64,000 bases of DNA from Candidatus Campbellbacteria bacterium (GCA_016699465.1 CP064977.1:409743-473742), one strand, 5' to 3'. Positions 1 to 41,912 are shown, numbered from the stretch's first letter. A program made the numbers and translations. The notes: generated by a model from the letters alone, not told the origin.

Positions 1-2366
1 CAGCCTGCTCGGTAAAGTTCGGACCTAATTTAACTTTGGTCTATGGTAGCAACGGCAGTGGTAAGAGCGGCGTCGGACGACTTTTGTGCAATGCTTGTTT
101 TTCTCGCGGAGAGCGAGAGATATTGCCGAACGTGCGTACTGCCTCCATACCGGGCCCGGAAGCAAAAGCAACATTCGTGATGGATGACGGGGCTGGTAAC
201 CAGAGCGAGATTGGATATACTCTCGGCGACAACAACGATGATCTCAAGTGCTTTTCTGTCTTTGATTCGGAAAGTGTTTTGATACACCTTGACCAGTCCA
301 ACCACGTTAATTTTACACCTGCTCAAATCAAGATTTTCGATAAGGTCGCTGTCACTATTTCAAAGCTTGAAGAAAAACTCACCAACGAGAGAAACGCAAG
401 GAAAAAAGACAATCCTTTTCAGGTGATGTTCCTCGACGACGCAACAACGTCGACGGCCACCTTCTGCAAAGGCATCACTGGTGCAACCAAAGAAGCCGAT
501 TTTCTTAAGCATGCCAATTTCGATGATCAAGTCGACGGATCAAAGATGGATGCGATCCAAAAACAGATCGATGAAAAGAAGAAGCTCGATATCACTAAAA
601 AGAAATCCCAGCTTGCCACCGATCGCCAAAATCTCGGAGCATTCAAAGCCCCACTGCAAAGAGTGACGGACCGGTTTACTGAGACGAAAATGAACGAAGC
701 GAACCAGCTCGTCAAAGATATCCTTGCAAAAAAGAAGATCATCGAGGGTCTCAGCGTCGAGAGTTTTAATGACGGTATTCTGAACACCGTCGGCAGTTCT
801 GAATGGAGAGAGTTGATCGGTGCGGCACGAACTCTGTATGAAGCCGAAAAAGCGGCCAGCGACGATAAAGAGCCAGCACACTGTATGTTGTGCCACCAAA
901 AGCTTACAAAAGATGCCGAGACGCTCTTCCAGAAGTATTGGAAATTTCTTGAGAGCAAAGCCGAGAGCGAGCTTTCCGAATTGACCCGTAAGCAGTCTGC
1001 TCTACTGCAGGATTTCCGATCTGCAAAAACGATGTACCCGAAGTTTCTTGCTACCGATGCCGGTGTAAAAGTTCTTAGTGAGGACGACCCGACTTATTTG
1101 GCAAAGCTAAAGGTTCAATTTACGACGTTGGAAGGTGTGTTGGATGATTGGACTTCGAAAATCGGAAAGCTAAAGGAAGTTAATCGAGACGACGTTCCGG
1201 CCGTTGACCTCGTCAAGATTGATACTCTCGTCACCGCTAAAACGACTGAGGAGTCCAAGCTCGTTGATCCAACCGGCGACATTGCCACGCTTACTGCTCA
1301 ATGGAATGCGCTTAAGCATAAAAAAGATGTCACGGCCGTTAAGGATGCAGGACTGGAATACATCGCATTTCTCGCATGGTCATCACAAGCAAATGGAGTC
1401 AGTTTCTCTGGCATGAAAATGGCGACCACAAAGAAACGAACTGAGTCTTTCCTTGTTGGAGTAGCACAAGATTATAAAGGGGTTTTCAATCAGGAGCTTG
1501 CGAAGCTTGGGTGCGATTTTAATTTGATTATGAATACCAGCGGTGAGCAAGGTACAACGGTAAAGGAGTACCGGCTCGATTTTGCTGAAGACTACAACCC
1601 CAGCCAGATACTCAGCGAGGGAGAGCAGAACGCATGCTCGATCGCAGACTTCTTAACCGAAGTACAGCTCGATAAAAACAATTGCGGTATCGTGTTCGAC
1701 GACCCGGTGACTTCATTGGATCATGAGCGTAAGGACAAGATCGCTCAACGATTGGCAGTTGTTGCCGGAGAGCGTCAGGTAGTAGTTCTTACGCATGACA
1801 TTGTTTTCATGAGCCAGCTTGCCAAGCATGCAGAAAGAAATCAGATCCCAGTAGTTGCACACTGGATGAAGCAGGTTAATGGCATACCGGGGTGCGTTGA
1901 AGACAACACCAGCCCGAAGCTCTCATCGTTAGCAAGTCTGAAGACTGACTCCCAGAATGCTGTAAAGGATTTTGCATCACTCGGTGCAAAAGAACAGGAG
2001 CAAGCTTTGGGTGCAGGGTTCGACTACTTGCGAAGTGCTTGTGAGGCATTGATTGAGGAAGTTCTCTTTGCCGGTACGATCCAACGCTATGACGACCAGA
2101 TCAGGGTTCAGAATCTGGAAGAGGTTATTTTTGACCAAGCTCCTGCTCTCAAGATCGTCGAGCTACACGGTCGACTCTCTGAGGTCTTATTGGCTCACAA
2201 CAGGAGTGATCTACAGAGGGAGAACCAGCCGTCACTCACTGATCTCACTGCAATGCGAAAAGAATTCGACGACCTCGAGAAAGAACTCCGAGAATCACGC
2301 AAAGCGGCCAAAGAAGCGAGAAGTGCTCGCAAAGAGGCAAAAGTAACAGCGAGAGCAGGATGGTAA
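1..2366 (+). CDS. SMC/Rad50-like ABC ATPase with coiled-coil CxxC zinc hook (AAA_13/RloC-like); 5' end runs off the window
   Basis: The frame is open to base 1 and the ORF-track start at 36 is TTG. Walker A GSNGSGKSG near the N-terminus. A long Lys/Glu-rich coiled coil with CMLCH (CxxC) sits mid-protein. ABC signature LSEGEQ, Walker B/D-loop IVFDDPVTSLD and H-loop VLTHD near the C-terminus, followed by a roughly 250-aa C-terminal extension. Confidence 0.6.
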   Translation, partial: ACSVKFGPNLTLVYGSNGSGKSGVGRLLCNACFSRGEREILPNVRTASIPGPEAKATFVMDDGAGNQSEIGYTLGDNNDDLKCFSVFDSESVLIHLDQSNHVNFTPAQIKIFDKVAVTISKLEEKLTNERNARKKDNPFQVMFLDDATTSTATFCKGITGATKEADFLKHANFDDQVDGSKMDAIQKQIDEKKKLDITKKKSQLATDRQNLGAFKAPLQRVTDRFTETKMNEANQLVKDILAKKKIIEGLSVESFNDGILNTVGSSEWRELIGAARTLYEAEKAASDDKEPAHCMLCHQKLTKDAETLFQKYWKFLESKAESELSELTRKQSALLQDFRSAKTMYPKFLATDAGVKVLSEDDPTYLAKLKVQFTTLEGVLDDWTSKIGKLKEVNRDDVPAVDLVKIDTLVTAKTTEESKLVDPTGDIATLTAQWNALKHKKDVTAVKDAGLEYIAFLAWSSQANGVSFSGMKMATTKKRTESFLVGVAQDYKGVFNQELAKLGCDFNLIMNTSGEQGTTVKEYRLDFAEDYNPSQILSEGEQNACSIADFLTEVQLDKNNCGIVFDDPVTSLDHERKDKIAQRLAVVAGERQVVVLTHDIVFMSQLAKHAERNQIPVVAHWMKQVNGIPGCVEDNTSPKLSSLASLKTDSQNAVKDFASLGAKEQEQALGAGFDYLRSACEALIEEVLFAGTIQRYDDQIRVQNLEEVIFDQAPALKIVELHGRLSEVLLAHNRSDLQRENQPSLTDLTAMRKEFDDLEKELRESRKAAKEARSARKEAKVTARAGW

Positions 2367-2375
2367 TAAAAATAT

Positions 2376-3134
2376 ATGTCTGAATACTACACAGCACAAC
2401 GAGTAAAAGGTTTATACGATCCGGCATCGCCGGACCCGTTCAAACTGTCACGATCAAAAATTGATCTCTCTTTGGAGTGCCCTCGGTGTTTCTACTACGA
2501 TCGCAGACTCGGTGTTGGCCGACCACCCGGCTTTCCATTTGCACTTAACTCTGCCGTCGACCACCTACTAAAAGCAGAATTTGATATCCATCGTGTAAAC
2601 GGTTCGAAGCACCCTCTTATAGAAAAGTACGGAATCGATGCACGCCCGATTCCTCATGAGCAATTGGAAAAGTGGCGACATAATTTCACCGGCATTCAGT
2701 ATCTACATCCGGAGACAAACTTTTTAGTATTTGGTGCAATCGATGATCTCTGGCAGAGTCCGGATGGTGATTATATTGTCGTTGACTACAAAGCAACATC
2801 TAAAGCTGAAGACATCACCGAGCTTAATAAAGAATGGCAGAATGGATATAAACGCCAGATGGAGGTGTACCAGTGGTTGCTTCGCAAGAATGGTTTGAAA
2901 GTTTCTAGTACTGGATATTTCGTCTACTGCAACGGCAAGTCTGATCGTGAGGCATTCGATGCAAAGCTCGACTTCGATATCACATTGATTCCTTACACCG
3001 GAGATGATTCATGGGTAGAACAGGCACTTCTGGATGCTCATAAATACTTGAATAATGACTCGCCACCGGCAAGCAAGCCGGAGTGCGATTACTGTTCTTA
3101 CTACGAGACGAGGAAATTAAAAGATAAAAGATAA
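2376..3134 (+). CDS. Cas4-like PD-(D/E)xK nuclease with putative 4-Cys Fe-S cluster
   Basis: PD-(D/E)xK core ...GAIDDLW...DGDYIVVDYKAT. N-terminal CPRC plus C-terminal CDYC cysteines, as in Cas4/AddB/RecB-family nucleases. Starts 10 nt after the ATPase stop. Confidence 0.6.
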   Translation: MSEYYTAQRVKGLYDPASPDPFKLSRSKIDLSLECPRCFYYDRRLGVGRPPGFPFALNSAVDHLLKAEFDIHRVNGSKHPLIEKYGIDARPIPHEQLEKWRHNFTGIQYLHPETNFLVFGAIDDLWQSPDGDYIVVDYKATSKAEDITELNKEWQNGYKRQMEVYQWLLRKNGLKVSSTGYFVYCNGKSDREAFDAKLDFDITLIPYTGDDSWVEQALLDAHKYLNNDSPPASKPECDYCSYYETRKLKDKR

Positions 3135-3306: not shown

Positions 3307-4176
3307 ATGAAAACAAAAATACTTAATTTTTATAGAAATCACCAACGTGCTTTTTATGCTATCGGCATTTTAGTTCTTTTCTTTGTACTCAGTATTGCGA
3401 GCCAAGCAATATATGATGGACTCAAGGGCGAGACGGAAACCTTTTCGGATTCTGGTGATTCATATTGCAATGTTGTTGGTATAAATTTGCACGGTATGTT
3501 AGCGACCTACGTACCAGCACAAGGCAGTGCAGATGATCCGGAAGAATATCAGGCACAGTATGGCGATGCTGTAGGAAGCGAAGATATTGTTTCCACGATT
3601 CGAGGTGCCGATCAGGACGATACGATCAAGGCCATTATGATGGAAGTTGATTCGAGTGGTGGGTATCCGGTAGCCGGCGAGGAAGTGGCAAATGCGCTAA
3701 AAGAAAGCACGAAACCTACTGTAGTCGTGATCAGGCAAAGTGGTCTATCGGCCGCCTACTGGGCATCAACAGGAGCTACGCAAATCTTTGCTTCAAGGAA
3801 TTCTGATGTTGGAAGTATCGGTGTCACTTCATCCTATCTCGACAACGTTGGAAAGAATCAGAAAGACGGAAACGCTTATGTGCAGTTGAGCTCAGGAAAA
3901 TATAAAGACGCAGGAGATCCAGACAGGCCACTTACAGAAGAAGAAAAGCAGTTATTTCTAAGAGATATTAAAATTACTCATCAGAATTTTATAGAAGCCG
4001 TTGCGACTAACCGAAACATTCCGGTCGATCAGGTTAGGGCTATTGCTGATGGTTCCTCTGTTCTTGGAGAGCAAGCAAAATCTCTAAAATTAGTAGACCA
4101 GATTGGTGGATGGTTTGAAGCAGAAAAATACATAGAACAGCAGATCGGAGAGAAGCCAGAGGTCTGTTGGTACTAA
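3307..4176 (+). CDS. sppA: signal peptide peptidase SppA / S49 family protease
   Basis: N-terminal TM segment. S49/ClpP-like motifs (IKAIMMEVDSSGG, SGLSAAYWAS). Confidence 0.65.
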   Translation: MKTKILNFYRNHQRAFYAIGILVLFFVLSIASQAIYDGLKGETETFSDSGDSYCNVVGINLHGMLATYVPAQGSADDPEEYQAQYGDAVGSEDIVSTIRGADQDDTIKAIMMEVDSSGGYPVAGEEVANALKESTKPTVVVIRQSGLSAAYWASTGATQIFASRNSDVGSIGVTSSYLDNVGKNQKDGNAYVQLSSGKYKDAGDPDRPLTEEEKQLFLRDIKITHQNFIEAVATNRNIPVDQVRAIADGSSVLGEQAKSLKLVDQIGGWFEAEKYIEQQIGEKPEVCWY

Positions 4177-4185
4177 CAAATATTT

Positions 4186-5196
4186 ATGGCAACACTATTT
4201 TTTATTCTACTTTTAATATCACTTGTTTCTCTCGCTGTCGGTCTTGCGAAGCCGTCAGTATTTCTTAGGTTCATAAAAAAAGAGCTGAGCAGAAAACAAA
4301 TCGCTGGTATTTTTGGAAGTTTGGCAATTGTTTCTTTTATAGGAATTGGGTCTTTTGCACCTAGTCCTGCACTGCAAGATTCAGTCGCTACACAAAATAT
4401 TCCTGTAACAGTTTCTCAAAATGATACACAGGAAGTGCAAGATGCATCGGAAACGTCTGATGCTGTCGATAATAAAAAAGAAGTCGTTAGTGTCGACACA
4501 GGCACCGCCAAAGCAAGTGAGGTGCCTGTCCCTACGCAACAGAAGAGCGATCAGAGTCCATTGTATTCTGTAGTTTCTGTTGTTGATGGAGATACTGTTA
4601 AATTGAGCATAGACGGCACGACACAAACCATTAGACTTATCGGATTGGATACACCGGAGACCGTCGATCCAAGAAAACCAGTGCAATGTTTTGGTAAGGA
4701 AGCATCAAATAAGGCCAAAGAACTTCTCACTGGTAAGAGTGTCAGGTTAGAGGTAGATGCTTCGCAGGGTACCCTCGATAAGTATGGCCGCACACTTGGA
4801 TATATATTTCGAGATGATGGACTCTTTTATAACAAGTACATGATCGAGCAAGGTTTTGCACACGAGTATACCTATAACATCCCCTATAAATATCAATCGG
4901 AATTTAAGGCGGCTGAGAAGTCAGCACGAGAAAATCAGAGAGGTCTATGGTCACCTGAAACTTGTAATGGTGACACCGCGTCTGTTTCTGGATCATCGGA
5001 AACCCAGACTGATCCAGCTACAACATCCTCTGGAGGAAAATTTTATACATCATCTTATTACTCATCAAAATATTACTATCCAGAGCCATGTGATGGATGG
5101 AAAAGTTTGAGCAAAACTTACCTTAAATCTTTTGATTCATTGGAGGCTCTACTTGAAGCATATCCGTCACGGACAATGAGTCCTCAATGTGAATAA
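4186..5196 (+). CDS. membrane-anchored thermonuclease (SNase-like) family protein
   Basis: N-terminal TM segment. SNase-fold motifs GDTVKL, IRLIGLDTPET, DKYGRTLGYIF. Ser/Tyr-rich C-terminal tail. Confidence 0.65.
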   Translation: MATLFFILLLISLVSLAVGLAKPSVFLRFIKKELSRKQIAGIFGSLAIVSFIGIGSFAPSPALQDSVATQNIPVTVSQNDTQEVQDASETSDAVDNKKEVVSVDTGTAKASEVPVPTQQKSDQSPLYSVVSVVDGDTVKLSIDGTTQTIRLIGLDTPETVDPRKPVQCFGKEASNKAKELLTGKSVRLEVDASQGTLDKYGRTLGYIFRDDGLFYNKYMIEQGFAHEYTYNIPYKYQSEFKAAEKSARENQRGLWSPETCNGDTASVSGSSETQTDPATTSSGGKFYTSSYYSSKYYYPEPCDGWKSLSKTYLKSFDSLEALLEAYPSRTMSPQCE

Positions 5197-26754: not shown

Positions 26755-27117
26755 TCTATTGAGAGAGCAAAGATGCGAGGCATGTTTGCTTGTAGTATTT
26801 AATAAATAGTTTGTTACCCCTGTCTCGACATAACCCTAAAAATAACCATTCACGGTCATCTCATACAGGGTACCCAGACACATTGGTATATCACAAAAAC
26901 ACCCAAAACAAAAGGGCGTTCGCGCATCGCGCGAACACCCCAACTACACAGCGAAGAGATCTACTCACCACCGGGTCGAATGAGCCAATGGCACATGAGG
27001 AAACCTTCTCCTGCCACTCAAATTTTCTGAATGAGCTCCCTCACCATCCCAGAGAGTTCATTCACCCCTGTCGAAGAAAGCGGGGGGTGTGAGCGAGGTC
27101 TTCTGTGGTTTCCCTCG

Positions 27118-27225
27118 TCAAACAACGTCCACCGCCACACGGAGGATTGTCTCACGATCCTCCGCGTCAACCTCCAACGGCAACCTGATCACCCAAGCCG
27201 CCAGCTTCGTGTCGCCTAGACTCAT
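27118..27225 (-). CDS. candidate 35-aa small ORF with consensus SD in the secD leader
   Basis: AAGGAGG, 5 nt, ATG. MSLGDTKLAAWVIRLPLEVDAEDRETILRVAVDVV. GC-rich. Confidence 0.2.
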   Translation of the reverse strand: MSLGDTKLAAWVIRLPLEVDAEDRETILRVAVDVV

Positions 27226-27292
27226 TTTGCCTCCTTTCGTTGTCCTAAGGTTTTAACCAGATTCTGTGAATATATTATAAAAACACAATACC

Positions 27293-28129
27293 TCATTCCG
27301 ATATCTCTGGTGACTGATACTTAACACATAGCAATAAATTATGAAAAAGCATTGCAATAGCAATTGGGCCAACTCCTCCTGGAACAGGGGTCATCACTGA
27401 AGCTTTTTGTGCACATTCTGGATCTGCATCCCCCACCACCTTGCCCCCCGCCTCGCTCGTGCCCGCGTCGAGAATAACCACGCCATCTTTAATCATGTTG
27501 GGCTTGAGCACGTGTGGCGCGCCGGCACCCAAAACAAGGATATCTGCGTTGTGTGTGTACGCTTCGAGCGTGTCACCGCGTTCGACCACGGCGACACGCG
27601 CACCCCAATGAGACAGCCATGTTGCCATGGGACCACCCACAAGCAACCCGCGTCCAACAACAACCGCGTTTTTCTCCGCAACGTCAACTCCTGCATGCTC
27701 CAAGATTTCTTTGCACGCGCCAACCACAGGTGGAAGGAGTGACATATCGCCGTTTTCAAAACGGGTTCGTGCCTCCGCGCCAAGTCCATCGACATCGTGC
27801 GACGCCGGAATCGTGTCTTGTATCTTTTTGAAATCAATGTGCGCCGGCAAGGGCAACTGTACGATGATGCCGTTGCTCACAGCAACAGCCTCGCGCACGT
27901 GTGCAACCAACGCATCGGTTGTCGTTGATTCAGGAAGCTCGAGCACCCGCACATCAACACCAACCGATTCACCGGTTCGTTTTTTGATCTTGATGAACTG
28001 TTGCGTTGCGGCATCAGACGAGAGCACAAACACGCTCAAAAGCGGCCTCTCAACAAGCGTTGAGACCTTGTGTGCAAGCGATTCGGTTATCTCACGCGCA
28101 ATAGCGCGTCCATCAATGAGCATATGCAT
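27293..28129 (-). CDS. folD: bifunctional methylenetetrahydrofolate dehydrogenase/cyclohydrolase
   Basis: FolD catalytic and NADP-binding motifs (GGVGPIAIAML). Confidence 0.85.
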   Translation of the reverse strand: MHMLIDGRAIAREITESLAHKVSTLVERPLLSVFVLSSDAATQQFIKIKKRTGESVGVDVRVLELPESTTTDALVAHVREAVAVSNGIIVQLPLPAHIDFKKIQDTIPASHDVDGLGAEARTRFENGDMSLLPPVVGACKEILEHAGVDVAEKNAVVVGRGLLVGGPMATWLSHWGARVAVVERGDTLEAYTHNADILVLGAGAPHVLKPNMIKDGVVILDAGTSEAGGKVVGDADPECAQKASVMTPVPGGVGPIAIAMLFHNLLLCVKYQSPEISE

Positions 28130-28150
28130 ATTCTACCATTCATCACACAT

Positions 28151-28212
28151 ATAAAAATGAAACCCCCGTGCAGTGAGCACGGGGGGGCAAAGCTAGACAT
28201 CAGGCAGCGCGA
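28151..28212 (-). terminator. terminator module copy 1 (downstream of gene A)
   Basis: cccccgtgctcactgcacggggg hairpin plus tttcattttt on the minus strand. Near-identical to the module at 29044-29103. Confidence 0.55.
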
Positions 28213-28886
28213 GTGTGAGAGAACACGAGACGCCCGGCGTCCCAAGCGAGGCCGTGGTCGACCTTGCCGGCGCCGACGACCCAGCCGCCGCTGCCGGCGT
28301 GCCAGAGGACGTTCACGAGCCGCAAGACGCCCTTGGCGTCCCGAACCCGGAACAGGTTCGCCCTGCCGTCGACGTGGAGCTTGCCACGCCGACCCTGACC
28401 CTGACGCTTCATCAGCGCCCAGATCTGGCCGCACGTGGCCTCCTCGACACCTTCGCCGAGCGCGGTGTTGATGTCCGCGCAGTAGGCGGTGCGGGTGAGC
28501 TCGTTGCGCCGGAGCGCGAGCGGAGGCTGCGCCTCCTCGACGAGACCGCCGAAGCAGCTCGTGAAGAAGCCGTCGATGTACCCCACCTTCACGCCGTCCG
28601 TCTTGCCCACCTTGAAGTGAGCGGAGACGTCGAAGCTCGGGATGGCGGCGATCTTCACCGTGTCGAGGTAGCGGAAGAGCGGCGGAACGGCCGGCTTCTC
28701 AATCTCGACGATGCGATGCGTGCCGTCGAGCACGCACTCGACATTCTGCAGCTTGCCGTCGACGTAACCCTGCACGATCCGACCGACAACAACAGGATCG
28801 AGAGACCCCTCCCTGACCCGTCGGAACCAGTCGTGTTGCTGTCGGGCAAACTTGCCCAATGCCGTGTCGTCTGCGACGTGAGTCAT
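28200..28886 (-). CDS. hypothetical protein A (GC-rich island)
   Basis: RBS AAAGGAGAG then 5 nt then ATG (MTHVADD...). About 64% GC. No recognisable domain. Confidence 0.45.
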   Translation of the reverse strand: MTHVADDTALGKFARQQHDWFRRVREGSLDPVVVGRIVQGYVDGKLQNVECVLDGTHRIVEIEKPAVPPLFRYLDTVKIAAIPSFDVSAHFKVGKTDGVKVGYIDGFFTSCFGGLVEEAQPPLALRRNELTRTAYCADINTALGEGVEEATCGQIWALMKRQGQGRRGKLHVDGRANLFRVRDAKGVLRLVNVLWHAGSGGWVVGAGKVDHGLAWDAGRLVFSHTRAA

Positions 28887-28912
28887 GACGACTCTCCTTT
28901 CATGCCCGCAGG

Positions 28913-29036
28913 TCTCCATTGACCGCGGTTGTGAAAGCTCGTATTTAAGCCCTCAAAACCACGGCCAATTGATTGGTTTAGAAAGAACACACGCACCAGT
29001 AGTACGCGTAAAAGTGGGGGTTGTCAATGTTGGTGA
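28913..29036 (-). repeat. about 120-bp promoter/5'UTR module, copy 1 (upstream of gene A)
   Basis: Near-identical to 29785-29907. Contains minus-strand TTGACA (29022-29027) and internal CCATTGAC-type inverted half-sites. Confidence 0.7.
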
Positions 29037-29043
29037 GATTTTT

Positions 29044-29103
29044 ATAAAAATGAAACCCCCGTGCAGTGAGCATGGGGGCAAAGCGAGACATCAGACAGCG
29101 CGA
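29044..29103 (-). terminator. terminator module copy 2 (downstream of gene B)
   Basis: Same hairpin plus T-tract as 28151-28212. The homology starts about 11 nt inside the coding 3' end. Confidence 0.55.
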
Positions 29104-29741
29104 AAATCAGCGGCAACGGAGCTGTCCCAGCTAGGGTTGATCCATTGCCCCATCGAGCAAACAAGATTCGCTTCTTGGTGCCAATATCCGTAGCGAACAT
29201 ACAGAAAGTTGGCAATATGCGAACGGTGGAAGGTATCACCGAGGAAGAACACCCGGATTGCATTTCCATTGGTATCCTTCTTCCACGACTCCGGCCAGAG
29301 CTCGGAACGCTTGATCAAGTAGTCAAGCACCTTGGCACCGACATTACCACCCGACTCATCAACCACCTTTCGGTGGTGACCCCCGTCGGCATCGATGGTA
29401 AGAAGGCTAAGCGGCTTACCATCAAGATACAACATGTCGCCCTGACGCTTGAGTTTGACAACGCCCGACTTCGGCGGGCTCATCCGCTCGAGTCCGAGGT
29501 CGTCAGACGGAAGCATACAGGGAACCGAGAAATCGATGGTGTGCTCCAGAGGATTGATCTCGTGCGTGCCGCGAAGAACCCCGATGTGAAGATCAAAGTC
29601 CGCCGGCCTGGACTTCACCATCTGAAAAAAGTCCAGAAGGTCTTGAACCGACCGCTTCCCATCCAAGACAAGCGGCCAGATTCCGAAAACCCAAAGCTTC
29701 CACAACCTCTCAGCCAGAATTTGGACGGTATTGGCGCCCAT
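29091..29741 (-). CDS. hypothetical protein B (GC-rich island)
   Basis: RBS AAGGAGAAAAT then ATG (MGANTVQILAERL...). No confident family assignment. Confidence 0.45.
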   Translation of the reverse strand: MGANTVQILAERLWKLWVFGIWPLVLDGKRSVQDLLDFFQMVKSRPADFDLHIGVLRGTHEINPLEHTIDFSVPCMLPSDDLGLERMSPPKSGVVKLKRQGDMLYLDGKPLSLLTIDADGGHHRKVVDESGGNVGAKVLDYLIKRSELWPESWKKDTNGNAIRVFFLGDTFHRSHIANFLYVRYGYWHQEANLVCSMGQWINPSWDSSVAADFRAV

Positions 29742-29784
29742 ATTTTCTCCTTGCCCAGTATCAGTGGGCACAAGGGCCGCGAAT

Positions 29785-29907
29785 CTCCATTGACCGCGGT
29801 TGTGAAAGCTCGTATTTAAGCCCTCAAAACCACGGCCAATTGATTGGTTTAGAAAGAACACACGCACCAGTAGTACGCGTAAAAGTGGGGATTGTCAATG
29901 TTGTGTG
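29785..29907 (-). repeat. about 120-bp promoter/5'UTR module, copy 2 (upstream of gene B)
   Basis: Near-identical to copy 1. Minus-strand TTGACA at 29893-29898. Confidence 0.7.
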
Positions 29908-30525
29908 AATATAAGAAAACCCCGCCACGTCTTGCAAGACGGGCGGGGCCCAGTTCTTTGGAGTTGCCCCTTAGTTCGAGCGCGCGACATGAGGACGAAG
30001 ATGCCCCTCATTCGTTTGTAGTCTATCAACAGTCGTCACTGTTGACCGCTCAAATCAGAGTTTCGGTGGGGGATTATCGCAAACGATCTCACCCCCAGGC
30101 TCCTAACGAGGCCAGAACCCGCGGCAGTAAGGGAGATGTGTGCTCAACACACATCAATTGTCTTACACCAAAACGCGGAATACCCCGAGCCCATTAACGC
30201 ATGAACTAGGCGGAGTTAGTTTACCGCTCTCATAGCGGGAGTGTGAATTTGTGTCATAGCGCCCCCCACTCTGGCGCTTAAGGCTTCTTCATAGCCTTCC
30301 TTTCTGTTTTTTGTTGACATTGCGCCATACCCCCGAATGGAGCTGGCACTCATTTTCTGAAGAGTATTATACACACCTCAAATTATTTGTCAAGTATTTT
30401 ATGATTATGTAGAGAACCATACCAAAAAACAGCCCTGTTAGGCCATTTTATGTTTTTACCTTTTTATTTCCCACATACCGGCGTTTACATACTAGCTAAC
30501 TAGCTAATGAAGCTAAAAAGCTTCA

Positions 30526-31896
30526 TTAAATTCCCGCCCGTGACAAAATCGTCTTCACCGTCTTGAGTGCAATTTTGAGGTCCAGTGTAATGTTTCTGTT
30601 TTTGATGTAATACAAATCGTAGGACAACTTCACCCGCGTCTCCCCCACGTCTGTTCCATGATGTGGATGGTTCTCGTGGTAGATCTGTGCCCACCCTGAG
30701 AGCCCTGGCTTGATAAGATGGCGCACATTATAGAATGGTACTTCTTGTTCATAAAGCTTTACCATCGCAGGAAATTCTGGACGCGGACCAATAAGAGAAA
30801 TATCCCCACGCAACACATTCCACAATTGAGGTAACTCATCGATGCGAAGTGTGCGAAGTATTTTTCCTGTTTTTGTTACCACATACTTACTTGCAAGCAC
30901 CGCATTCCCTGAATCACTTCCTGTCATGGTGCGTACTTTAAAAATACGAATGGTATGATTATTTTTTCCCACACGATCTTGCGAAATAAACATCGAACCG
31001 CCGTCTTCAAAACGAATAGCAAAATACACAAATGGAAAAAGTATGAGCGACACAACGAGAAGCGGAAGAGCAATGAGTATATCCATGCCTCGCTTTAAAA
31101 ATTCATAGGTAAATTTTCGTGTCGCAGAAATATTTTCCAAAAACCAACTGTACTGCACCAATGAAAGCGGAACGCGATCAAAAATATCTTCGTACACTTT
31201 GTGCATGTCAACAAAACGCACGCCCGAAAACATGAGGTTATACAACTTAGGAAGAACCTGTACGACATTTTCGTGTTTGGTATCAACAACAATAGTAGTG
31301 ATATTCTCCGAATACATTCGTTCAATGATTTCTTTTTGAAAGTCCAGATCAGAAACATTCGACAAATCAATTGATGATGCAAAAAAGATTCCGTAGCGAG
31401 GATTGCTATTTACTTCACGTTTAAGCTCATCCATCTCATTACCACTACCGATAAGGATTGCCGCTTGTCGTTCAGGCGATTCAAAAAACAACACGCTATT
31501 GCGCCTCCAAATGACCACACACACAAACGAGACCACAAGAAAAATGAAGAGCGTTGTTTTTGGAGTAATACCAAAATACGGAATGAAGTAGAAGAAGAAA
31601 ATACCGAGGATACTATTCACCACCTGCGCATTCAAAATAATTGATGGAATACGTTTTTTAAGAAACGTCGTGTGCTTGTCATAGAGACCTGCAATAAAAA
31701 ATACCAGAAGCCACAACACAAAAAGTATGGTAAATGGCTGGAAGTGGGACACGAGGGCACCCATATCAGGAATTTCAAAACGTCTTAAAAAAAGCGTCAC
31801 CCACAAGGAAAAATAGAGAACGAGAACGTCCCCAAGAAAAAGAATGAGCGCTTCTGAGCGATTGACTATTTTCCCTACGGGCATGAGTACACACAC
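30526..31896 (-). CDS. polyprenyl-phosphate sugar phosphotransferase (WbaP/bacterial sugar transferase family)
   Basis: N-terminal multi-TM region. C-terminal sugar-transferase domain (RIDELPQLWNVLRGDISLIGPRPE). Confidence 0.8.
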   Translation of the reverse strand: MCVLMPVGKIVNRSEALILFLGDVLVLYFSLWVTLFLRRFEIPDMGALVSHFQPFTILFVLWLLVFFIAGLYDKHTTFLKKRIPSIILNAQVVNSILGIFFFYFIPYFGITPKTTLFIFLVVSFVCVVIWRRNSVLFFESPERQAAILIGSGNEMDELKREVNSNPRYGIFFASSIDLSNVSDLDFQKEIIERMYSENITTIVVDTKHENVVQVLPKLYNLMFSGVRFVDMHKVYEDIFDRVPLSLVQYSWFLENISATRKFTYEFLKRGMDILIALPLLVVSLILFPFVYFAIRFEDGGSMFISQDRVGKNNHTIRIFKVRTMTGSDSGNAVLASKYVVTKTGKILRTLRIDELPQLWNVLRGDISLIGPRPEFPAMVKLYEQEVPFYNVRHLIKPGLSGWAQIYHENHPHHGTDVGETRVKLSYDLYYIKNRNITLDLKIALKTVKTILSRAGI

Positions 31897-36526: not shown

Positions 36527-36838
36527 GTGGATAATATTTAGAATATAGAATATGAAAGACAGCGTAAGAACATATACAGAATATCAGAAAAAACCTTTTT
36601 CAGAAACAAAAACACCGCCTTGTGAGCGATGTTTTTGATTGAATGCTTTGTTCTGGCGGCTACCTACTCTTGCCCTTACGGACTACCATCGGCACTAATG
36701 AGCTTAACTTCCGAGTTCGGAATGAGATCGGGTGTATCCCCATCGTTAAGCCACCAGAACAAAATTTTCAATCAGAATGAACTCTGACAACTGCATAAGT
36801 ATACACAAACACTGAAGAGTGGCCCTTTTTTGAAAAAT

Positions 36839-37107: not shown

Positions 37108-37261
37108 AGTGGTGGACCTGGAGGGATTCTAACCCCCAACCTCTTGGTTTAACAAGCGCTCTGACAAGGCTCATCCGTTAGGGATTTGAACCCCTGAAAC
37201 CAACGGCTGTGTTGATTTCCCCATCCGTGGGTTATAGGACAACCCATTTTGAGCTACAGGT
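37108..37261 (-). ncRNA. 154-nt tRNA-like element of unknown identity, downstream of the 23S 3' end
   Basis: Perfect 7-bp terminal helix GGACCUG...CAGGUCC followed by A-CCA. Internal anticodon-arm-like GGGTT-GTCCTAT-AACCC and two T-loop-like motifs. Does not fold as a canonical single tRNA or as a 5S rRNA. Confidence 0.25.
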
Positions 37262-37714
37262 CCAAAATATTTCCACTCTTCAATGTTTGTGTAGTATTCC
37301 CCGACGTATACATCGGAGCAAAAAGAAATCAGCGCGCTATGAATCGATTTTCAGATTACCTAACAGGAGATGTCGACGAATTAGTACATCTCGGCTCCAC
37401 ACATTACTGTGCGTCCACCTAATGCCTATCAACGTGATCATCTCTCACGGGTCTTAATGATTTCTAATCTTGAAGTTGGCTTCCCTCTTAGATGCTTTCA
37501 GAGGTTATCCATTCCCGACATAGCTACGCAGCGGTGCACCTGGCGGTACAGCTGCCACACCAGAGGTCAGTTCATTCCGGTCCTCTCGTACTAGGAACGA
37601 ATCTTCTCAAAAATCAGCGCCTGCAGCAGATAGGAGACCAACCTGTCTCACGCATGTTTCCAACGATTGCTCGTTGCATTGGACTATACCTTATACCTCG
37701 CTTTGCGAGTAAAC

Positions 37715-38375
37715 CCAAAGTTCAAATTTCAAAGCTCAAAATTTTGGATTTTGTGCTTTGTGCTTTGGATTTTCTTCTGCATCGCAGAAGGCATGTTGAC
37801 ATGTAGTCTCTACGGGTAATTGTGAATTCTATTGAGGGGCCGACGCAGGGTCAGCCCGGAACTTTCTGATCGAGTCAGATGATCCAGCTCGTCAGCATGT
37901 AGCTGGCGAAAAAGACCAAGACGCTGAGCGCGATCTTGATGTCGCGATCGACGTTCCTCATTTCTTCCTTGGTAGGGTGAACGAAGAAGTCTCGACGACT
38001 GCACGCAGGAAGAAATCCCGGCATGAAAGAACCTCCTTTCTGGACAGAAATGTCCTCAATAGAACTCACAATCATTCCCTCGGAATTACCCATAAAGGGT
38101 TTTCCCGATATAAGTCAACTTACTTCATACACATTACTATGTATGACCGCCGTGATATGATTGGTTCCTTTTAGTTTTCATCTTAAAAGACGAAAAGATT
38201 TTTTGGGCAACCGATTTCATTTTAAAATCGGAAGTTTTATTAGACAACATTACTTCGAAGGGATTCAGACTGTTTTGAAACCAATCACAAAATCCAAAGT
38301 TCAAAATCCAAAAAAATTCTAAGGTTTAAATCTTAAAAAACTTTTTTGAGCTTTGTGCTTTGAGCTTTTGATTTC
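37715..38375. repeat. IVS-like insertion in 23S, bounded by palindromic AT-rich repeat copies
   Basis: Copies of AAAGTTCAAAATCCAAAAAA...TTTTGAGCTTTGTGCTTTGAG at both ends (37715-37775, 38290-38375). A GC-rich interior has short ORFs with weak similarity (SRRDFFVH) to the four-helix-bundle protein. Confidence 0.55.
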
Positions 38376-38411
38376 AGTTCCAGAACGGTCTGAACCCAGC
38401 TCGCGTACCTT

Positions 38412-38444
<33 letters not shown>

Positions 38445-39044
38445 TCTCCAGCCCCGGGATAAGGTGAGCCGACATCGAGGTGCCGAACACCACCGTCGCT
38501 ATGGACGCTCGGGTGGTACCAGCCTGTTATCCCCAGAGTAGCTTTTATCCGTTGAGCTCCCCCCGCATCTAAAGCGAAAGGTCGGATCACTATGCTCTAC
38601 TTTCGTACCTGCTCGACATGTCCGTCTTGCAGTTAAGCCCTCTTTTGCCATTACACTATCGGCACGGTTTCCATTCGCGCCTAGAGGACCTTTATAGACC
38701 CCTCCGTTACTTTTTAGGAGGGATTCGCCCCAAACAAACTACCTGCCAGATACTGTTCCCTACCGTTTTTGCCGTCAGGGTTAGAACGTACAATTCAAAA
38801 GAGTGGTATTTCATATTTCGAGTCCAGCAGAGCCAAAACCCTGCCTTCAACCTCTCCCACCTATGCTACGCATTTAACTCGTACGCCCAATATCAAGCTG
38901 TAGTAAAGCTTCTGGGGTCTTTTCGTCTAGCTGCAGGTAGAGGGCATCTTCACCCCCATTGTATTTTCACCGAGCGAGTCCTCGAGACAGTTCCCCAGTC
39001 GTTACACCATTCGTGCGCGTCAGAACTTACCTGACAAGGAATTG

Positions 39045-39083
<39 letters not shown>

Positions 39084-40849
39084 CAGGGCTTATACAGTTC
39101 AGCATATACCTTGCGGCACACACCCCCCGTACTTGACCTTCTGGCATTGGTCAGGTGTCACCCCCTATACATCCTCTTGCGAGTTCGCAGGGAGCTGTGT
39201 TTTTGATAAACAGTCGCCAGGGAGACTTTCGCTGCGGCCCACGTACTGCTACGTGGGCAGACCTTATTGCTAACTTACGGTCGCTTTTTTGCCGAGTTCC
39301 TTGAGGACCTCTCACTCGTTCGCCTTACTCTACTCGAGCTGAACACCGGAGTCGGTTTGCGGTACGGTCTGTGTGTATTTATTCTTAGAAGATTTTCTTG
39401 GAAGCGCGCTCTATACCATTCCCCAACCCGAAAGTTGAGTTCTCGAAAACACTCGGGATAGTGCCTGCCGGATTTACCTAACAAGCGCCCTCGTGTCCCC
39501 GACACAAATCCAATAATGTGCGATATATACAGCACTCCGTCTCTCCATCGAAATACACCCAGGTCATGGAATATTAACCATGTGTCCATCATGTTCGGAT
39601 TTCTCCATCCACTTAGGCCCGACTAACCCTTCGCTGATTACCATCGCGAAGGAAACCTTGTTCTTTCGGCGTGCGGGTATTTCACCCGCATTGCGGTTAC
39701 TTGTACCAACATTCGCTCTTCGGAACGCTCCACCGTGGCTCACGCCTTCGGCTTCATCGCAGATCCAAATGCTCTCCTACCACTGCACATGCACGAATGC
39801 ACATACAATCCTCAGTTTCGGTACAATGCTTAGCCCCGATTGTCTGTGGCGCGAAGTCTCTAAATGAGTGAGCTGTTACGCTTTCTTTAAAAGATGGCTG
39901 CTTCTAAGCCAACTTCCTCAGTGTTTAAGAAACTTCACCTCCTCGACTGTGCACTTAGCATTGATTTTGGGACCTTAACTTGAGATCAAGGGCTGTTTCC
40001 CTTTTGACCAGTGGAGCTTAGCCCCCACGGTCTAACTGCCTAACACTTTACTCTTGGTATTCGGAGTTTGATTGGTCCAGCGAGATTTCTCCCTATCCAG
40101 ACCATCCAGTGCTCTACCCCCAAGAGGTACGTTAGACGCCAGCCCAAAAGCTGTTTCGGAGAGAACCAGCTATTACTAGGTTCGATAAGCTTTTCACTCC
40201 AACCCACAAGTCATCCGAAGATTTTGCACCATCAACCGGTTCGGGCCTCCCTCCATCTTTCGACAGAGTTCACCCTGCTCATGGGTAGCTCACCTAGCTT
40301 CGGGTCTTATGCAGACGACTAAAAGTAGAAGTTGGAGGCCAGACTCGAAGATACCGAAGTACCTTTTCGCCTGACTTCTAACTTCTACTATGTTCGCGCT
40401 ATTCACACTCGGTTTCCCTACAGATTCATCCGACAAAGGACTTATCTTACGCCGTGTGCATAAACTCGTTGGCTCATTCTTCAATAGGCACGCCATGACG
40501 GTCTTGCGACCGCGCTGACTCCTTGTAGGCATATGGTTTCAGATCTATTTCACTCCCCTCTCCGGGGTTCTTTTCACCTTTCCCTCGCGGTACTAGTTCA
40601 CTATCGGTCTCAATGTGTATGTAGCCTTGCCGGTTAGTTCCGGCGGATTCCCTCAGGCTATTCGTGTCCTGAGGTACTCAGGAACGGTAACTAGAAAGAT
40701 GTGTTCTTTTCGCATACAGGACTATTACCCTCTAGGGTCGCGCTTTCCAGCGCATTCTGCTAAGAACACATTTTGTAACTTTCTCCTTATCCGAAGACAG
40801 GCGTTACCGCCCTACAACCCCGCACGCATCACGCTGTACGCGATGCGTA

Positions 40850-40940
40850 AATCCAAAATCCAAAGTTCAAAATCCAAAAAAATTCTAAGATTTTAATTCT
40901 TAAAAACTTTTTTGAGCTTTGTACTTTAAGCTTTGTGCTT
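40850..40940. repeat. short hairpin-only copy of the same palindromic repeat in the 23S 5' domain
   Basis: aatccaaagttcaaaatccaaaaaaattctaag...ctttttttgagctttgtactttaagctttgtgctt. Confidence 0.5.
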
Positions 40941-41912
40941 ACCCATCACATCCAATGTGATGCGCACGGTTTGGGCTTCTCCCGTTTCGCTCGCCGCTAC
41001 TAAGGGAATGACAATTGTTTTCTTTTCCACTGGGTACTGAGATGTTTCACTTCCCCAGGTATGCTCCTCATATTGCTATGAGATTATCGAGGGTTACTCG
41101 ATAGGGTTTCCCCATTCGGAAATCTCCGGATCAAAGGTTGCTTAACACCTCCCCGAAGCTTATCGCAGTTACACCACGTCCTTCATCGCCACATTGAACC
41201 AAGGCATCCACCATACGCCCTTTAAATCTCCCGTTAGGAAATCTAAAAACCGTCTCGCATACAACCGCCTACAAAGTGGTTGCATGCTACTTTCATATTT
41301 CTACTTGATTGTTTCATTGGAGCTAGATTAACCAATGAAACTACCTGCTCTTGTCTTACTCAAAAGACAAGAATTTTTGATTCTTTTTGCCCCGACTTTT
41401 TATAGTCGGGATACTACCTATGCAGTTGTCAAAGTTCATCTACCTTGTATGAGAACAAAAAAACCGCTTTTTCAAGCGGAGATTTCTGAGGCACACCGAT
41501 TGTGCGCATTTAGATGCTCCGCGTCGATATGCAGTTAGCTGGTGTATTCATACTAGGTGTTGCCTATTATAGCCATGCAGAGCACCGTGTCAAGGATTTA
41601 GGTCCCAAAAATGCCTCTTTAGTGCAATCAAAAAATGAGACAAAAAACCCTTACAGAATAAAGGTTTTTAAGACCGTCTATAAAAGTCCTGAAAAGTCCC
41701 TGGGGAGAACCTGTGGGTAAGATTTCATTCGCCTCACTTTCTTGGAAACACGCATCGTTTTCTGCTGAAAACGCGCTCCCTCTCGAGCTCAGCTCTCCGA
41801 GAGTTTTCCAAAAAAGAAGGCTTCACCCCTAAGGTTTGGATACAAAAAAATAATGGAAAAGAGCCCGACGGACAAAGCTTTTAGACTCTTTTCCACGGGC
41901 TCTTGCACCCAC

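Follow-up and report, generated by a model that had tools for sequence, protein, structure and literature searches.

A probable tandem pair of diversity-generating retroelement target genes with shared flanking modules in Candidatus Campbellbacteria

The subject of this study is a block of two genes, here called A and B, at positions 28150-29910 of a 64-kb stretch of DNA from a Candidatus Campbellbacteria bacterium, a member of the candidate phyla radiation (CPR); the window, below, means the whole of that stretch. Both genes are framed by the same upstream and the same downstream module. With a probability of roughly three in four, these tandem genes are targets of diversity-generating retroelements (DGRs), encoding variable proteins of a large CPR-specific family, and each forms a self-contained expression unit. 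Such a unit would consist of a sigma70-type promoter, a 5' leader of about 105-120 nt with a family-specific RNA hairpin of 21-23 bp (termed R1), an open reading frame (ORF) of about 220 codons that joins an exchangeable N-terminal helical module and a body to a C-terminal variable region (VR), and a GC-hairpin/T-tract terminator. The repeated arrangement is real and is explained by known biology, that of DGR targets, while its apparently new component is the leader hairpin. The layout itself is unusual in its tandem targets lacking a reverse transcriptase (RT), its homogenised flanks, and its variable chromosomal slot. The block is neither a demonstrated riboswitch nor a dedicated cassette-shuffling system. 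Apart from DGRs, no prokaryotic system of targeted protein hypermutation is known, and CPR bacteria are strikingly rich in DGRs.

Comparison of loci shows the family to which A and B belong to consist of the variable proteins of CPR-type DGRs, because related loci have target, template repeat (TR), Avd, and RT laid out together with mismatches specific to adenine. In locus L007, from another member of the Campbellbacteria, an R1 hairpin is followed by the target, the TR, Avd on the opposite strand, and the RT, and all 11 mismatches between VR and TR fall at TR adenines. Likewise, in L004 the VR, which forms the last 127 nt of the gene, recurs 500 nt downstream at 81% identity with 24 of 24 mismatches at TR adenines, and bAvd and the start of an RT follow the template repeat. 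Across the 10 loci in which VR and TR were compared, at least 90% of mismatches lie at TR adenines in 8, the exceptions being L020 (8/12) and L021 (15/19). TR, Avd, and RT stand directly downstream of the target in 12 of 24 B-type metagenome loci, with 2 more of the 24 keeping only an RT remnant, and the contig of a further family protein, P0009, has an RVT_1 gene 760 nt downstream. The RT of L007 is 60-70% identical to CPR-type RTs.

Two features of these loci are recorded in their own right. In L017 (1169-1396) and L019 (6665-6892), a B-type target is followed by only the C-terminal 77 or so residues of a DGR RT, which is consistent with a DGR in decay and fits the origin of orphan targets by RT loss. 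A motif, GGTAGTAGG(T/C)(T/G)AATC, occurs in canonical loci about 40-50 nt past the target's terminator hairpin and before the TR; in L004, L015, L018, L020, L021, L025, L031, and L033 it lies about 60-80 nt after the target's terminator, and in L004 a similar motif is also found within the target's own leader. This motif, of which the window has no copy, may mark the start of the DGR RNA.

Layout of the block

The features of the block, all on the minus strand, are as follows, with P denoting the upstream (promoter/leader) module, T the downstream (hairpin/T-tract) module, and R1 the hairpin inside the P leader.

29785..29903, minus strand: P module upstream of gene B, promoter and leader, 118/119 identical to 28914-29032
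29786..29842, minus strand: R1 hairpin in the 5' untranslated region (UTR) of gene B, from a covariance model and a minimum-free-energy (MFE) fold
29091..29741, minus strand: gene B, 216 aa, IPJ70_02425, B-type DGR variable-protein family by homology
29094..29220, minus strand: decayed VR of B, which aligns to the VRs of members with a cognate TR
29043..29103, minus strand: T module at the end of gene B, comprising the last 11 nt of the ORF, a spacer, a hairpin (29078-29056), and a T-tract
28914..29032, minus strand: P module upstream of gene A, with its -35 element at 29027-29022 and a -10-like TACTAC at 29004-28999
28915..28971, minus strand: R1 hairpin in the 5' UTR of gene A, from the covariance model and a fold
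28200..28886, minus strand: gene A, 228 aa, IPJ70_02420, A-type DGR variable-protein family by homology
28752..28886, minus strand: N-terminal module of A, motif LGKFARQQxDWFRRVREGSLDP, from alignment and hhalign
28218..28316, minus strand: VR of A, rich in NNC codons, from codon variation among orthologues
28150..28212, minus strand: T module at the end of gene A, comprising the last 11 nt of the ORF, a spacer, a hairpin (28185-28163), and TTTCATTTTT

Read along the minus strand, the modules follow one another as P-B-T-P-A-T. An earlier note on this DNA had described an upstream repeat of about 120 bp carrying a minus-strand TTGACA, together with a common downstream hairpin/T-tract module whose homology begins about 11 nt before the stop codon, and these observations are borne out. 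Beyond the 119-nt core, the P copies agree at 97% over 127 nt when their edges are included (28906-29032 versus 29777-29903), and each has its TTGACA, at 29027-29022 and 29898-29893, respectively. The T copies match in two segments, at 35 of 36 positions (28150-28185 versus 29043-29078) and at 23 of 25 (28188-28212 versus 29079-29103), with a 2-nt indel in a run of C between them, and their homology starts at CGCGCTGYCTGA, 11 nt inside either ORF. Both P and T are present exactly twice in the window, where the number expected by chance is 0. In the copy that precedes B, the -35 element (29898-29893) is separated by a 17-nt spacer from a weak -10 element, TACTAC (29875-29870), and the leader would start near GTTCTTTC, with transcription predicted to begin near 29863 (and near 28992 in the copy before A); the orthologous leaders of L035 and L002 have consensus promoters at the matching position, with TATAAT or TATACT as the -10 element.

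The variable-protein family and the state of genes A and B

Neither protein has a match in Pfam, PHROGs, PADLOC, or NCBIfam, or among PDB sequence profiles, and exact-protein look-ups of both returned none. Their homologues form two families of hypothetical proteins of about 200 residues, in which all taxon-labelled members are from CPR bacteria and most members are unlabelled metagenome sequences; those of B come from CPR genomes and unbinned metagenome or SRA contigs and likewise have no Pfam matches. An exhaustive profile search places the size of the family at 2705 clusters of 50% identity at E <= 1e-3, or 1542 at E <= 1e-10. A phage-borne origin was considered and is unsupported, as no relatives of A or B were found among the viral contigs of IMG/VR.

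The earlier note had called the two proteins unrelated. This holds in that BLASTP finds no significant match between A and B (best E 0.23), but they are alike in architecture, with exchangeable N-terminal modules and a C-terminal VR. The family is conspicuously mosaic. Close homologues of the body of A bear other N-termini, and the N-terminal 45 residues of A, with the motif given above, are also found on proteins with quite different bodies; an hhalign comparison of two of the alignments (A5 and A6) gives a probability of 91% over residues 1-37 only. Proteins with this N-terminal motif align in turn with the B family with a probability of 98.4% over the C-terminal half, and two of them, P0033 and P0006, have a B-type body behind an A-type N-terminus. 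Taken with homology to the targets of complete DGRs, sequence comparison shows A and B to be members of this DGR variable-protein family. The closest orthologues of A and of B in other genomes are 74-82% identical to them, nearer than A is to B.

Structure prediction gives a partial view of the scaffold on which variation would be displayed. The model of B has a mean confidence (pLDDT) of 78.7, rising above 90 in a C-terminal three-stranded meander that bears the VR, and comparison of this model with the PDB returned no credible neighbour and no C-type lectin match. The VR scaffold of the family may be a divergent C-type lectin fold or a different scaffold altogether. Neither protein has a signal peptide.

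The two genes appear to be in different states with respect to mutagenesis. In A, the VR comprises the last 37 codons before a conserved RLVFS end, and its variable codons are of the form NNC. Among four A-type orthologues, codon positions 1, 2, and 3 vary at 17, 21, and 8 of these 37 codons, as against 44, 36, and 62 of 125 codons in the body. On this evidence A keeps a DGR codon signature, probably AAC-templated, in which the first two positions vary and a third-position C is kept. In B, by contrast with what such a template would yield, codons that neither AAC nor AAT can give rise to (ATG, GGG, and CAA) stand at "variable" positions, and divergence of the VR from that of a strain-level orthologue, P0018, is no greater than in the rest of the protein. 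The comparison thus shows B to lack the signature, and its VR to have probably decayed.

The window does not supply the machinery that would be required. Neither 3' end has a TR-like match in the 64 kb, tblastn searches of the window with the RT and Avd of L007 gave best E values of 0.53 and 0.094, and the conserved 5' motif of the family's DGR RNA (the TR transcript) is absent from it. Near-identical contigs that extend about 3 kb past one window end (L038) and about 7.5 kb past the other (L039) contain no DGR parts, and a search with the L007 RT as query found no RT from the 811-kb contig of this genome among the best 120 of 8000 CPR-type RTs. A and B are inferred to be orphan or remote targets. 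A would have been diversified recently by an RT and TR that are elsewhere in the genome or have since been lost, and B would be a fossil target. The block then offers an example of stand-alone targets, one with a mutagenesis signature and one decayed.

The earlier note, which had raised horizontal acquisition of the two genes, set a block of about 62% GC against about 45% in the neighbouring folD. These figures were overstated: the block measures 57.5% and folD 53.3%, with 66.2% for gene A, 54.1% for gene B, and 46.9% for the window. Gene A is the only strong outlier, with a GC content at third codon positions (GC3) of 0.85 as compared with 0.31-0.52 in neighbouring genes, and gene B is intermediate at 0.65. 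On the sense strand, adenine makes up 16% of gene A overall and 9% of its VR. Each member of the DGR-target family is 4-20 GC points above its CPR host context (for example, L003 10001-10627, L005 10001-10621, and 28200-28886 of the window). High GC is therefore not by itself evidence of recent foreign origin, because the family is GC-rich in every host examined. The excess could stem from avoidance of adenine, from amelioration once DGR activity had been lost, or from a GC-rich donor.

The leader hairpin and the terminator

Inverted half-sites of the CCATTGAC type had been described in the leader by the earlier note. An inverted repeat is indeed present there, but its halves pair with each other as the stem of a single long hairpin, R1, which measures about 22 bp and whose MFE folds have z-scores of -4.1 in the B leader and -4.2 in the A leader. 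The same succession of promoter, leader, and hairpin precedes family genes in many other CPR lineages, with stem sequences that are quite different. An alignment of 13 leaders, one per lineage, gives a consensus helix of 21 pairs, 17 of which show compensatory double changes. Pairing is kept in 92.3% of alignment cells, versus 72% in column shuffles and 32-44% in controls with slid partners, and the covariation score of 0.64 (0.26 when shuffled) was reached in none of 500 shuffles. One G.U pair is invariant in all 13 sequences, and a second, U.G, is frequent.

A covariance model built from R1 finds one strong sense match per locus, each directly 5' of a family gene, and two in the window, where either copy scores 55.3 bits in the sense orientation (E 2.8e-12) and the B copy 21 bits in antisense; in general, sense scores exceed antisense scores by 20-40 bits. 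No further match occurs over 320 kb of other sequence. Loci outside the alignment in which the hairpin is also detected are L007, L009, L022, L025, L029, L034, and L035, so that a search for further copies, which the earlier note had proposed, did find R1 before family genes in many CPR loci. R1 is a covarying hairpin placed exclusively before family genes. The conserved G.U pair and the asymmetry between strands favour function as RNA over a DNA operator or a recombination site.

Comparison with known elements gave little. Rfam 15 has no match to the P and T modules at E <= 1 in 27000-31500, and none at gathering score in the window. An exact 23-mer from the P hairpin has 0 matches in the metagenome collection and occurs at three loci in GTDB genomes (a collection without the window's genome), one of which is a chance match inside a Flavobacteriaceae ORF. 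No target-leader motif is mentioned in the searchable literature, which, in survey passages and abstracts, covers RT-associated motifs and DGR architectures. The hairpin is thus apparently undescribed, and it is apparently a conserved hallmark of this target family. As such it provides a handle on regulation, as well as a sequence and structure tag for targets that lie far from an RT and are missed by RT-centred surveys.

How the hairpin might work can be outlined from its pairing options. A role as an attenuator-terminator was rejected because R1 has no U-tract. In the A leader, GACCTGCGG, just past the hairpin, is an alternative pairing partner for the 3' arm (p ~0.02); the corresponding values are 0.007-0.08 in Campbellbacteria-type leaders and weaker elsewhere, with a per-leader range of 0.007-0.8. 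In MFE folds, the Shine-Dalgarno sequence is paired with a conserved 5' stretch, YUCUUU. Together these hint, by inference only, at translational control. Acting as RNA, R1 would affect expression of the variable protein by way of translation or stability; it may toggle between the long hairpin and a state in which its 3' arm pairs with a downstream repeat of the 5' arm, and the YUCUUU stretch may mask the Shine-Dalgarno sequence.

A bolder proposal, offered as tentative, is that R1 represents a new cis-acting RNA class for CPR DGR targets and that the P and T flanks serve as portable homology arms by which whole cassettes are swapped or stacked at one set position in the chromosome. Candidate binders of the RNA would be the variable protein itself, Avd or the RT, or another factor that couples expression to diversification. 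If cassettes flanked by P and T are swappable in this way, they would add to adenine mutagenesis a further layer of diversification, by recombination.

The downstream module reads as an intrinsic (Rho-independent) terminator. At gene A, a 9-bp stem with 8 GC pairs (28185-28163) is followed by TTTCATTTTT, and a scan calls it terminator-like; at gene B the same hairpin has one stem mismatch. The C-terminus of A, FSHTRAA, departs from the FSRNS of its orthologues exactly where T homology starts, so T was probably grafted onto A. In L009 the Bac_transf gene ends in RAGA*, and its similarity to the first codons of T is too short to decide where the module came from.

Another reading of T, which is doubtful, is that it is a DGR target-recognition hairpin or cruciform, kept identical so that a remote RT and TR can home into both genes. 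DGR targets need a GC-rich hairpin of 7-10 bp located 4-34 bp past the VR, and in BPP-1 a 4-nt GRNA loop is critical (Guo et al. 2011, PMC3240598). T resembles such a hairpin in its GC-rich stem and in its position shortly after the VR and stop codon: the stem begins 17 nt past the stop codon that ends the VR of A, and canonical family loci also have a post-VR GC-rich hairpin followed by TTTC(A/G)TTTT. It differs in its loop, which has 5 nt (UCACU) and is not of the GRNA type, and in its canonical T-tract, as expected of a plain intrinsic terminator; moreover, in L009 the same hairpin and flanks follow, and terminate, Bac_transf, a gene that is not a target. No single TR could serve A and B, whose VRs have unrelated sequences, and in B the VR is decayed and the stem mismatched.

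History of the locus and alternative explanations

Comparison with related contigs suggests how two such genes came to stand side by side. In the window, the order is Bac_transf, a non-coding unit, P-B-T-P-A-T, and folD. In L035 an A-type gene is alone at the site (Bac_transf-P-A'-terminator-folD-epimerase and so on to SecD), and L009 reads Bac_transf-T-P-B, its contig ending inside the B-type gene. L001 has a rearranged version of B: Bac_transf, the non-coding unit, folD, 75 nt of the 3' end of the non-coding unit, P-B'-T, and a 5' fragment of folD. These alignments show the intergenic slot between Bac_transf and folD to hold what appear to be A, B, or both across related strains. The T-P unit of the window (29081-28913) is 94.7% identical over 170 nt to its counterpart in L009, where it follows the Bac_transf gene.

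The identity of the flanks most likely reflects recent intragenomic copying rather than conservation, because P is 99% alike between the copies in this genome and 76-91% between orthologous copies in different genomes, while the two ORFs share nothing. By homologous or illegitimate recombination, the Bac_transf|folD hot spot would have gained a second cassette next to the first, the T-P junction unit being duplicated or gene-converted in the process and the native leader and last codons of A overwritten. A circular P-ORF-T intermediate integrating at T would yield the same product; nothing else favours that route. The block points to a chromosomal slot in which target cassettes replace or join one another.

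In L001, folD lies between the non-coding unit and the cassette and is preceded by a remnant of the promoter region of P (2916-2970). The cassette itself stands between a duplicate, 75 nt long, of the 3' end of the non-coding unit (3802-3876) and a 93-nt 5' fragment of folD (4781-4873). These pieces look like footprints of a duplicative rearrangement at the locus.

The earlier note had also raised a cassette-shuffling system, and the part of that idea that stands is a slot occupied by different ORFs (A-type in L035, B-type in L009, both in the window); no dedicated machinery was found within about 10 kb, where the neighbours are housekeeping genes. It is quite unlikely that a dedicated recombinase or transposase recognises the hairpins and moves P-ORF-T units about as mobile cassettes, in the manner of integron attC or IS200/IS605-like systems, with the constant flanks as its recombination sites. 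Such a reading would account for the hairpins at both ends, for the alternation of motif and ORF, for the many genomic contexts in which family genes occur, and for the T-P junction, which integration of a circular P-ORF-T at T would be expected to leave. An integron attC-type comparison is provided by the DUF1874 motif (Weinberg et al. 2017, PMC5737381), and the block is like integron cassettes in alternating a structured repeat with unrelated-looking ORFs. Unlike integron cassettes, however, the units have their own promoters, and the hairpin is 5' of the ORF, always in the transcribed leader and on the sense strand, with RNA-type covariation and conserved G.U pairs that point to RNA function; it is kept, moreover, before targets inside complete DGRs. 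Among the ten largest flanking ORFs (about 10 kb), no recombinase, integrase, transposase, IntI, or Y1_Tnp was found. Nine of these ORFs are housekeeping and one has no Pfam match, the set comprising SHMT, ThyA, SecF, SecD, FolD, Bac_transf, a glycosyltransferase, a pilin-like protein, FtsW, and the one without a match. The L001 cassette moved with pieces of host DNA, which favours general or illegitimate recombination, and the family has no relatives in IMG/VR.

With respect to IS200/IS605 or REP/RAYT elements, the only Y1_Tnp match is a weak one that adjoins the A-type homologue in L002. There, a frameshifted Y1_Tnp/RAYT-like gene (1960-2690) stands beside the A-type gene, bracketed by GGAGGTTCAACCTCCCA hairpins, and appears to be a REP/RAYT-like unit in a CPR contig. 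With stacking of DGR targets by recombination, the "modular cassette" appearance is explained without new mobile-element machinery.

Two other readings concern the leader. That it is a riboswitch or other ligand-sensing RNA co-regulating both genes is improbable. What survives of the shared regulatory leader suggested in the earlier note is a promoter and a structured leader that are common to both genes, the leader structure covarying in other genomes too. In favour of a riboswitch are the conservation of the structured leader, a possible alternative pairing of its 3' arm, and hairpins in B-type leaders that overlap the Shine-Dalgarno sequence. R1, however, consists of one long and almost perfect hairpin that has a small internal loop but neither a multi-helix junction nor a pseudoknot; it has few conserved unpaired nucleotides and no Rfam match at E <= 1, and it is associated with no metabolic gene but only with DGR variable proteins.

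Very little recommends the view that a dimeric repressor binds the inverted repeat as a DNA operator. The arms in L002 do form a perfect 17-bp palindrome, and the repeat is just downstream of the promoter, whose -35 region (CATTGAC) resembles the outer arm. Against this, the invariant G.U and frequent U.G pairs would count as mismatches if the repeat worked as DNA or from the opposite strand, and the scores of R1 are strongly asymmetric between strands. Arm sequences are also wholly different among lineages while their pairing is kept, so that a repressor co-evolving in every lineage would be needed.

A simple recent tandem duplication of ordinary paralogues, for which the tandem layout, repeated flanks, and common architecture and family might speak, is scarcely credible given flanks that are 99% identical, and so far more alike than ORFs with no detectable DNA or BLASTP similarity, orthologues elsewhere that are nearer to A and to B than the two are to each other, an A-type gene that stands alone at the site in L035, and modules that are found beyond this locus.

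Several points weigh against the reading of the block as a tandem pair of self-contained DGR targets. The -10 hexamer of P (TACTAC) is poor, and a consensus scan calls no promoter there. The regulatory role of the hairpin is a prediction, and the signal for alternative pairing is modest. The bodies of A and B are related by hhalign at a probability of 40%, over the N-terminal part only, which falls short of demonstrating homology between them, and the structure model of A, with a pLDDT of 43, is unusable. The history of the locus is drawn from four related contigs only. Further complicating interpretation, no RT or TR is tied to this genome by searches that covered the window and its flanks of about 3 kb and 7.5 kb; since the remaining genome, about 750 kb, lies outside them, remote and orphan targets are not separable.

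Comparison with DGRs described previously places the block among CPR systems while setting it apart in layout. CPR cellular DGRs correspond to "clade 2" in passages of the survey by Roux et al. (2021, PMC8144416) and to a "CPR set" with unclassified VR classes UVR1-6 in passages of that by Wu et al. (2018, PMC5758913). Passages of these surveys (PMC8144416 / PMC5758913) also note modularity of target proteins in CPR DGRs, suggest intragenic recombination, and describe these DGRs as usually having a single target. As far as those passages describe them, CPR DGRs and the loci of the present family are alike in host group, RT type, Avd, and short, domainless targets with a C-terminal VR; the targets of the window differ in standing in tandem, with no RT, Avd, or TR within 64 kb. 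Remote targets (>100 kb) are attributed in the passages of Wu et al. (2018, PMC5758913) only to Lineage 4 DGRs and their neighbours in the RT tree, not to the CPR set, and the same source gives seven remote targets for the DGR of Treponema denticola. The block resembles remote targets of that type in that gene A keeps a VR signature without a local TR, and it differs in that no cognate TR was seen in the window and B looks dead.

A likeness of another kind is offered by the vsp and vlp genes of Mycoplasma, in which near-identical promoter and leader regions precede divergent tandem genes and are kept alike by recombination. Those genes encode surface lipoproteins that are switched by site-specific inversion or slippage, whereas A and B have no signal peptides and their variation would be driven by a retroelement.

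Other features of the window are of interest apart from the block. Between Bac_transf and the first P module lies the non-coding unit of about 445 nt (29915-30393, minus strand). Its promoter is a perfect TTGACA-16-TATAAT (30393-30366), and its terminator (29948-29915) is of the hairpin/T-tract kind. At 93% identity to L001 2414-2916, the unit is more strongly conserved than the genes on either side. It folds with an RNAfold z-score of -4.7 and has two helices with compensatory changes, and a 2-nt indel excludes a conserved ORF. The unit is absent at the syntenic site in L035 and L009, and it is the last 75 nt of this unit that are duplicated before P in L001. Rfam has no match to it even at E <= 10, and ARAGORN finds no tmRNA. 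Identification as a tmRNA, an RNase P RNA, or a TR-less DGR RNA was considered and set aside, the first two having no ARAGORN or Rfam support and the unit being unlike the regions that flank TRs. It is a candidate for a new structured RNA.

Farther along, Rfam calls a tRNA that spans 151 nt (37113-37263, minus strand; 41.6 bits) and that ARAGORN does not report, which may have an intron or a large insertion. It is situated, with two other tRNAs, between the 23S (38306-41234) and 5S (36651-36758) genes, and the window contains no 16S gene. At the left end, positions 36-3134 of the window together with L039 1-8283 encode two N6_N4 DNA methylases, two unknown genes, an AAA_13 ATPase of 883 aa, and a PDDEXK_1 nuclease; with this gene content, the window appears to begin in the tail of a defence-like island.

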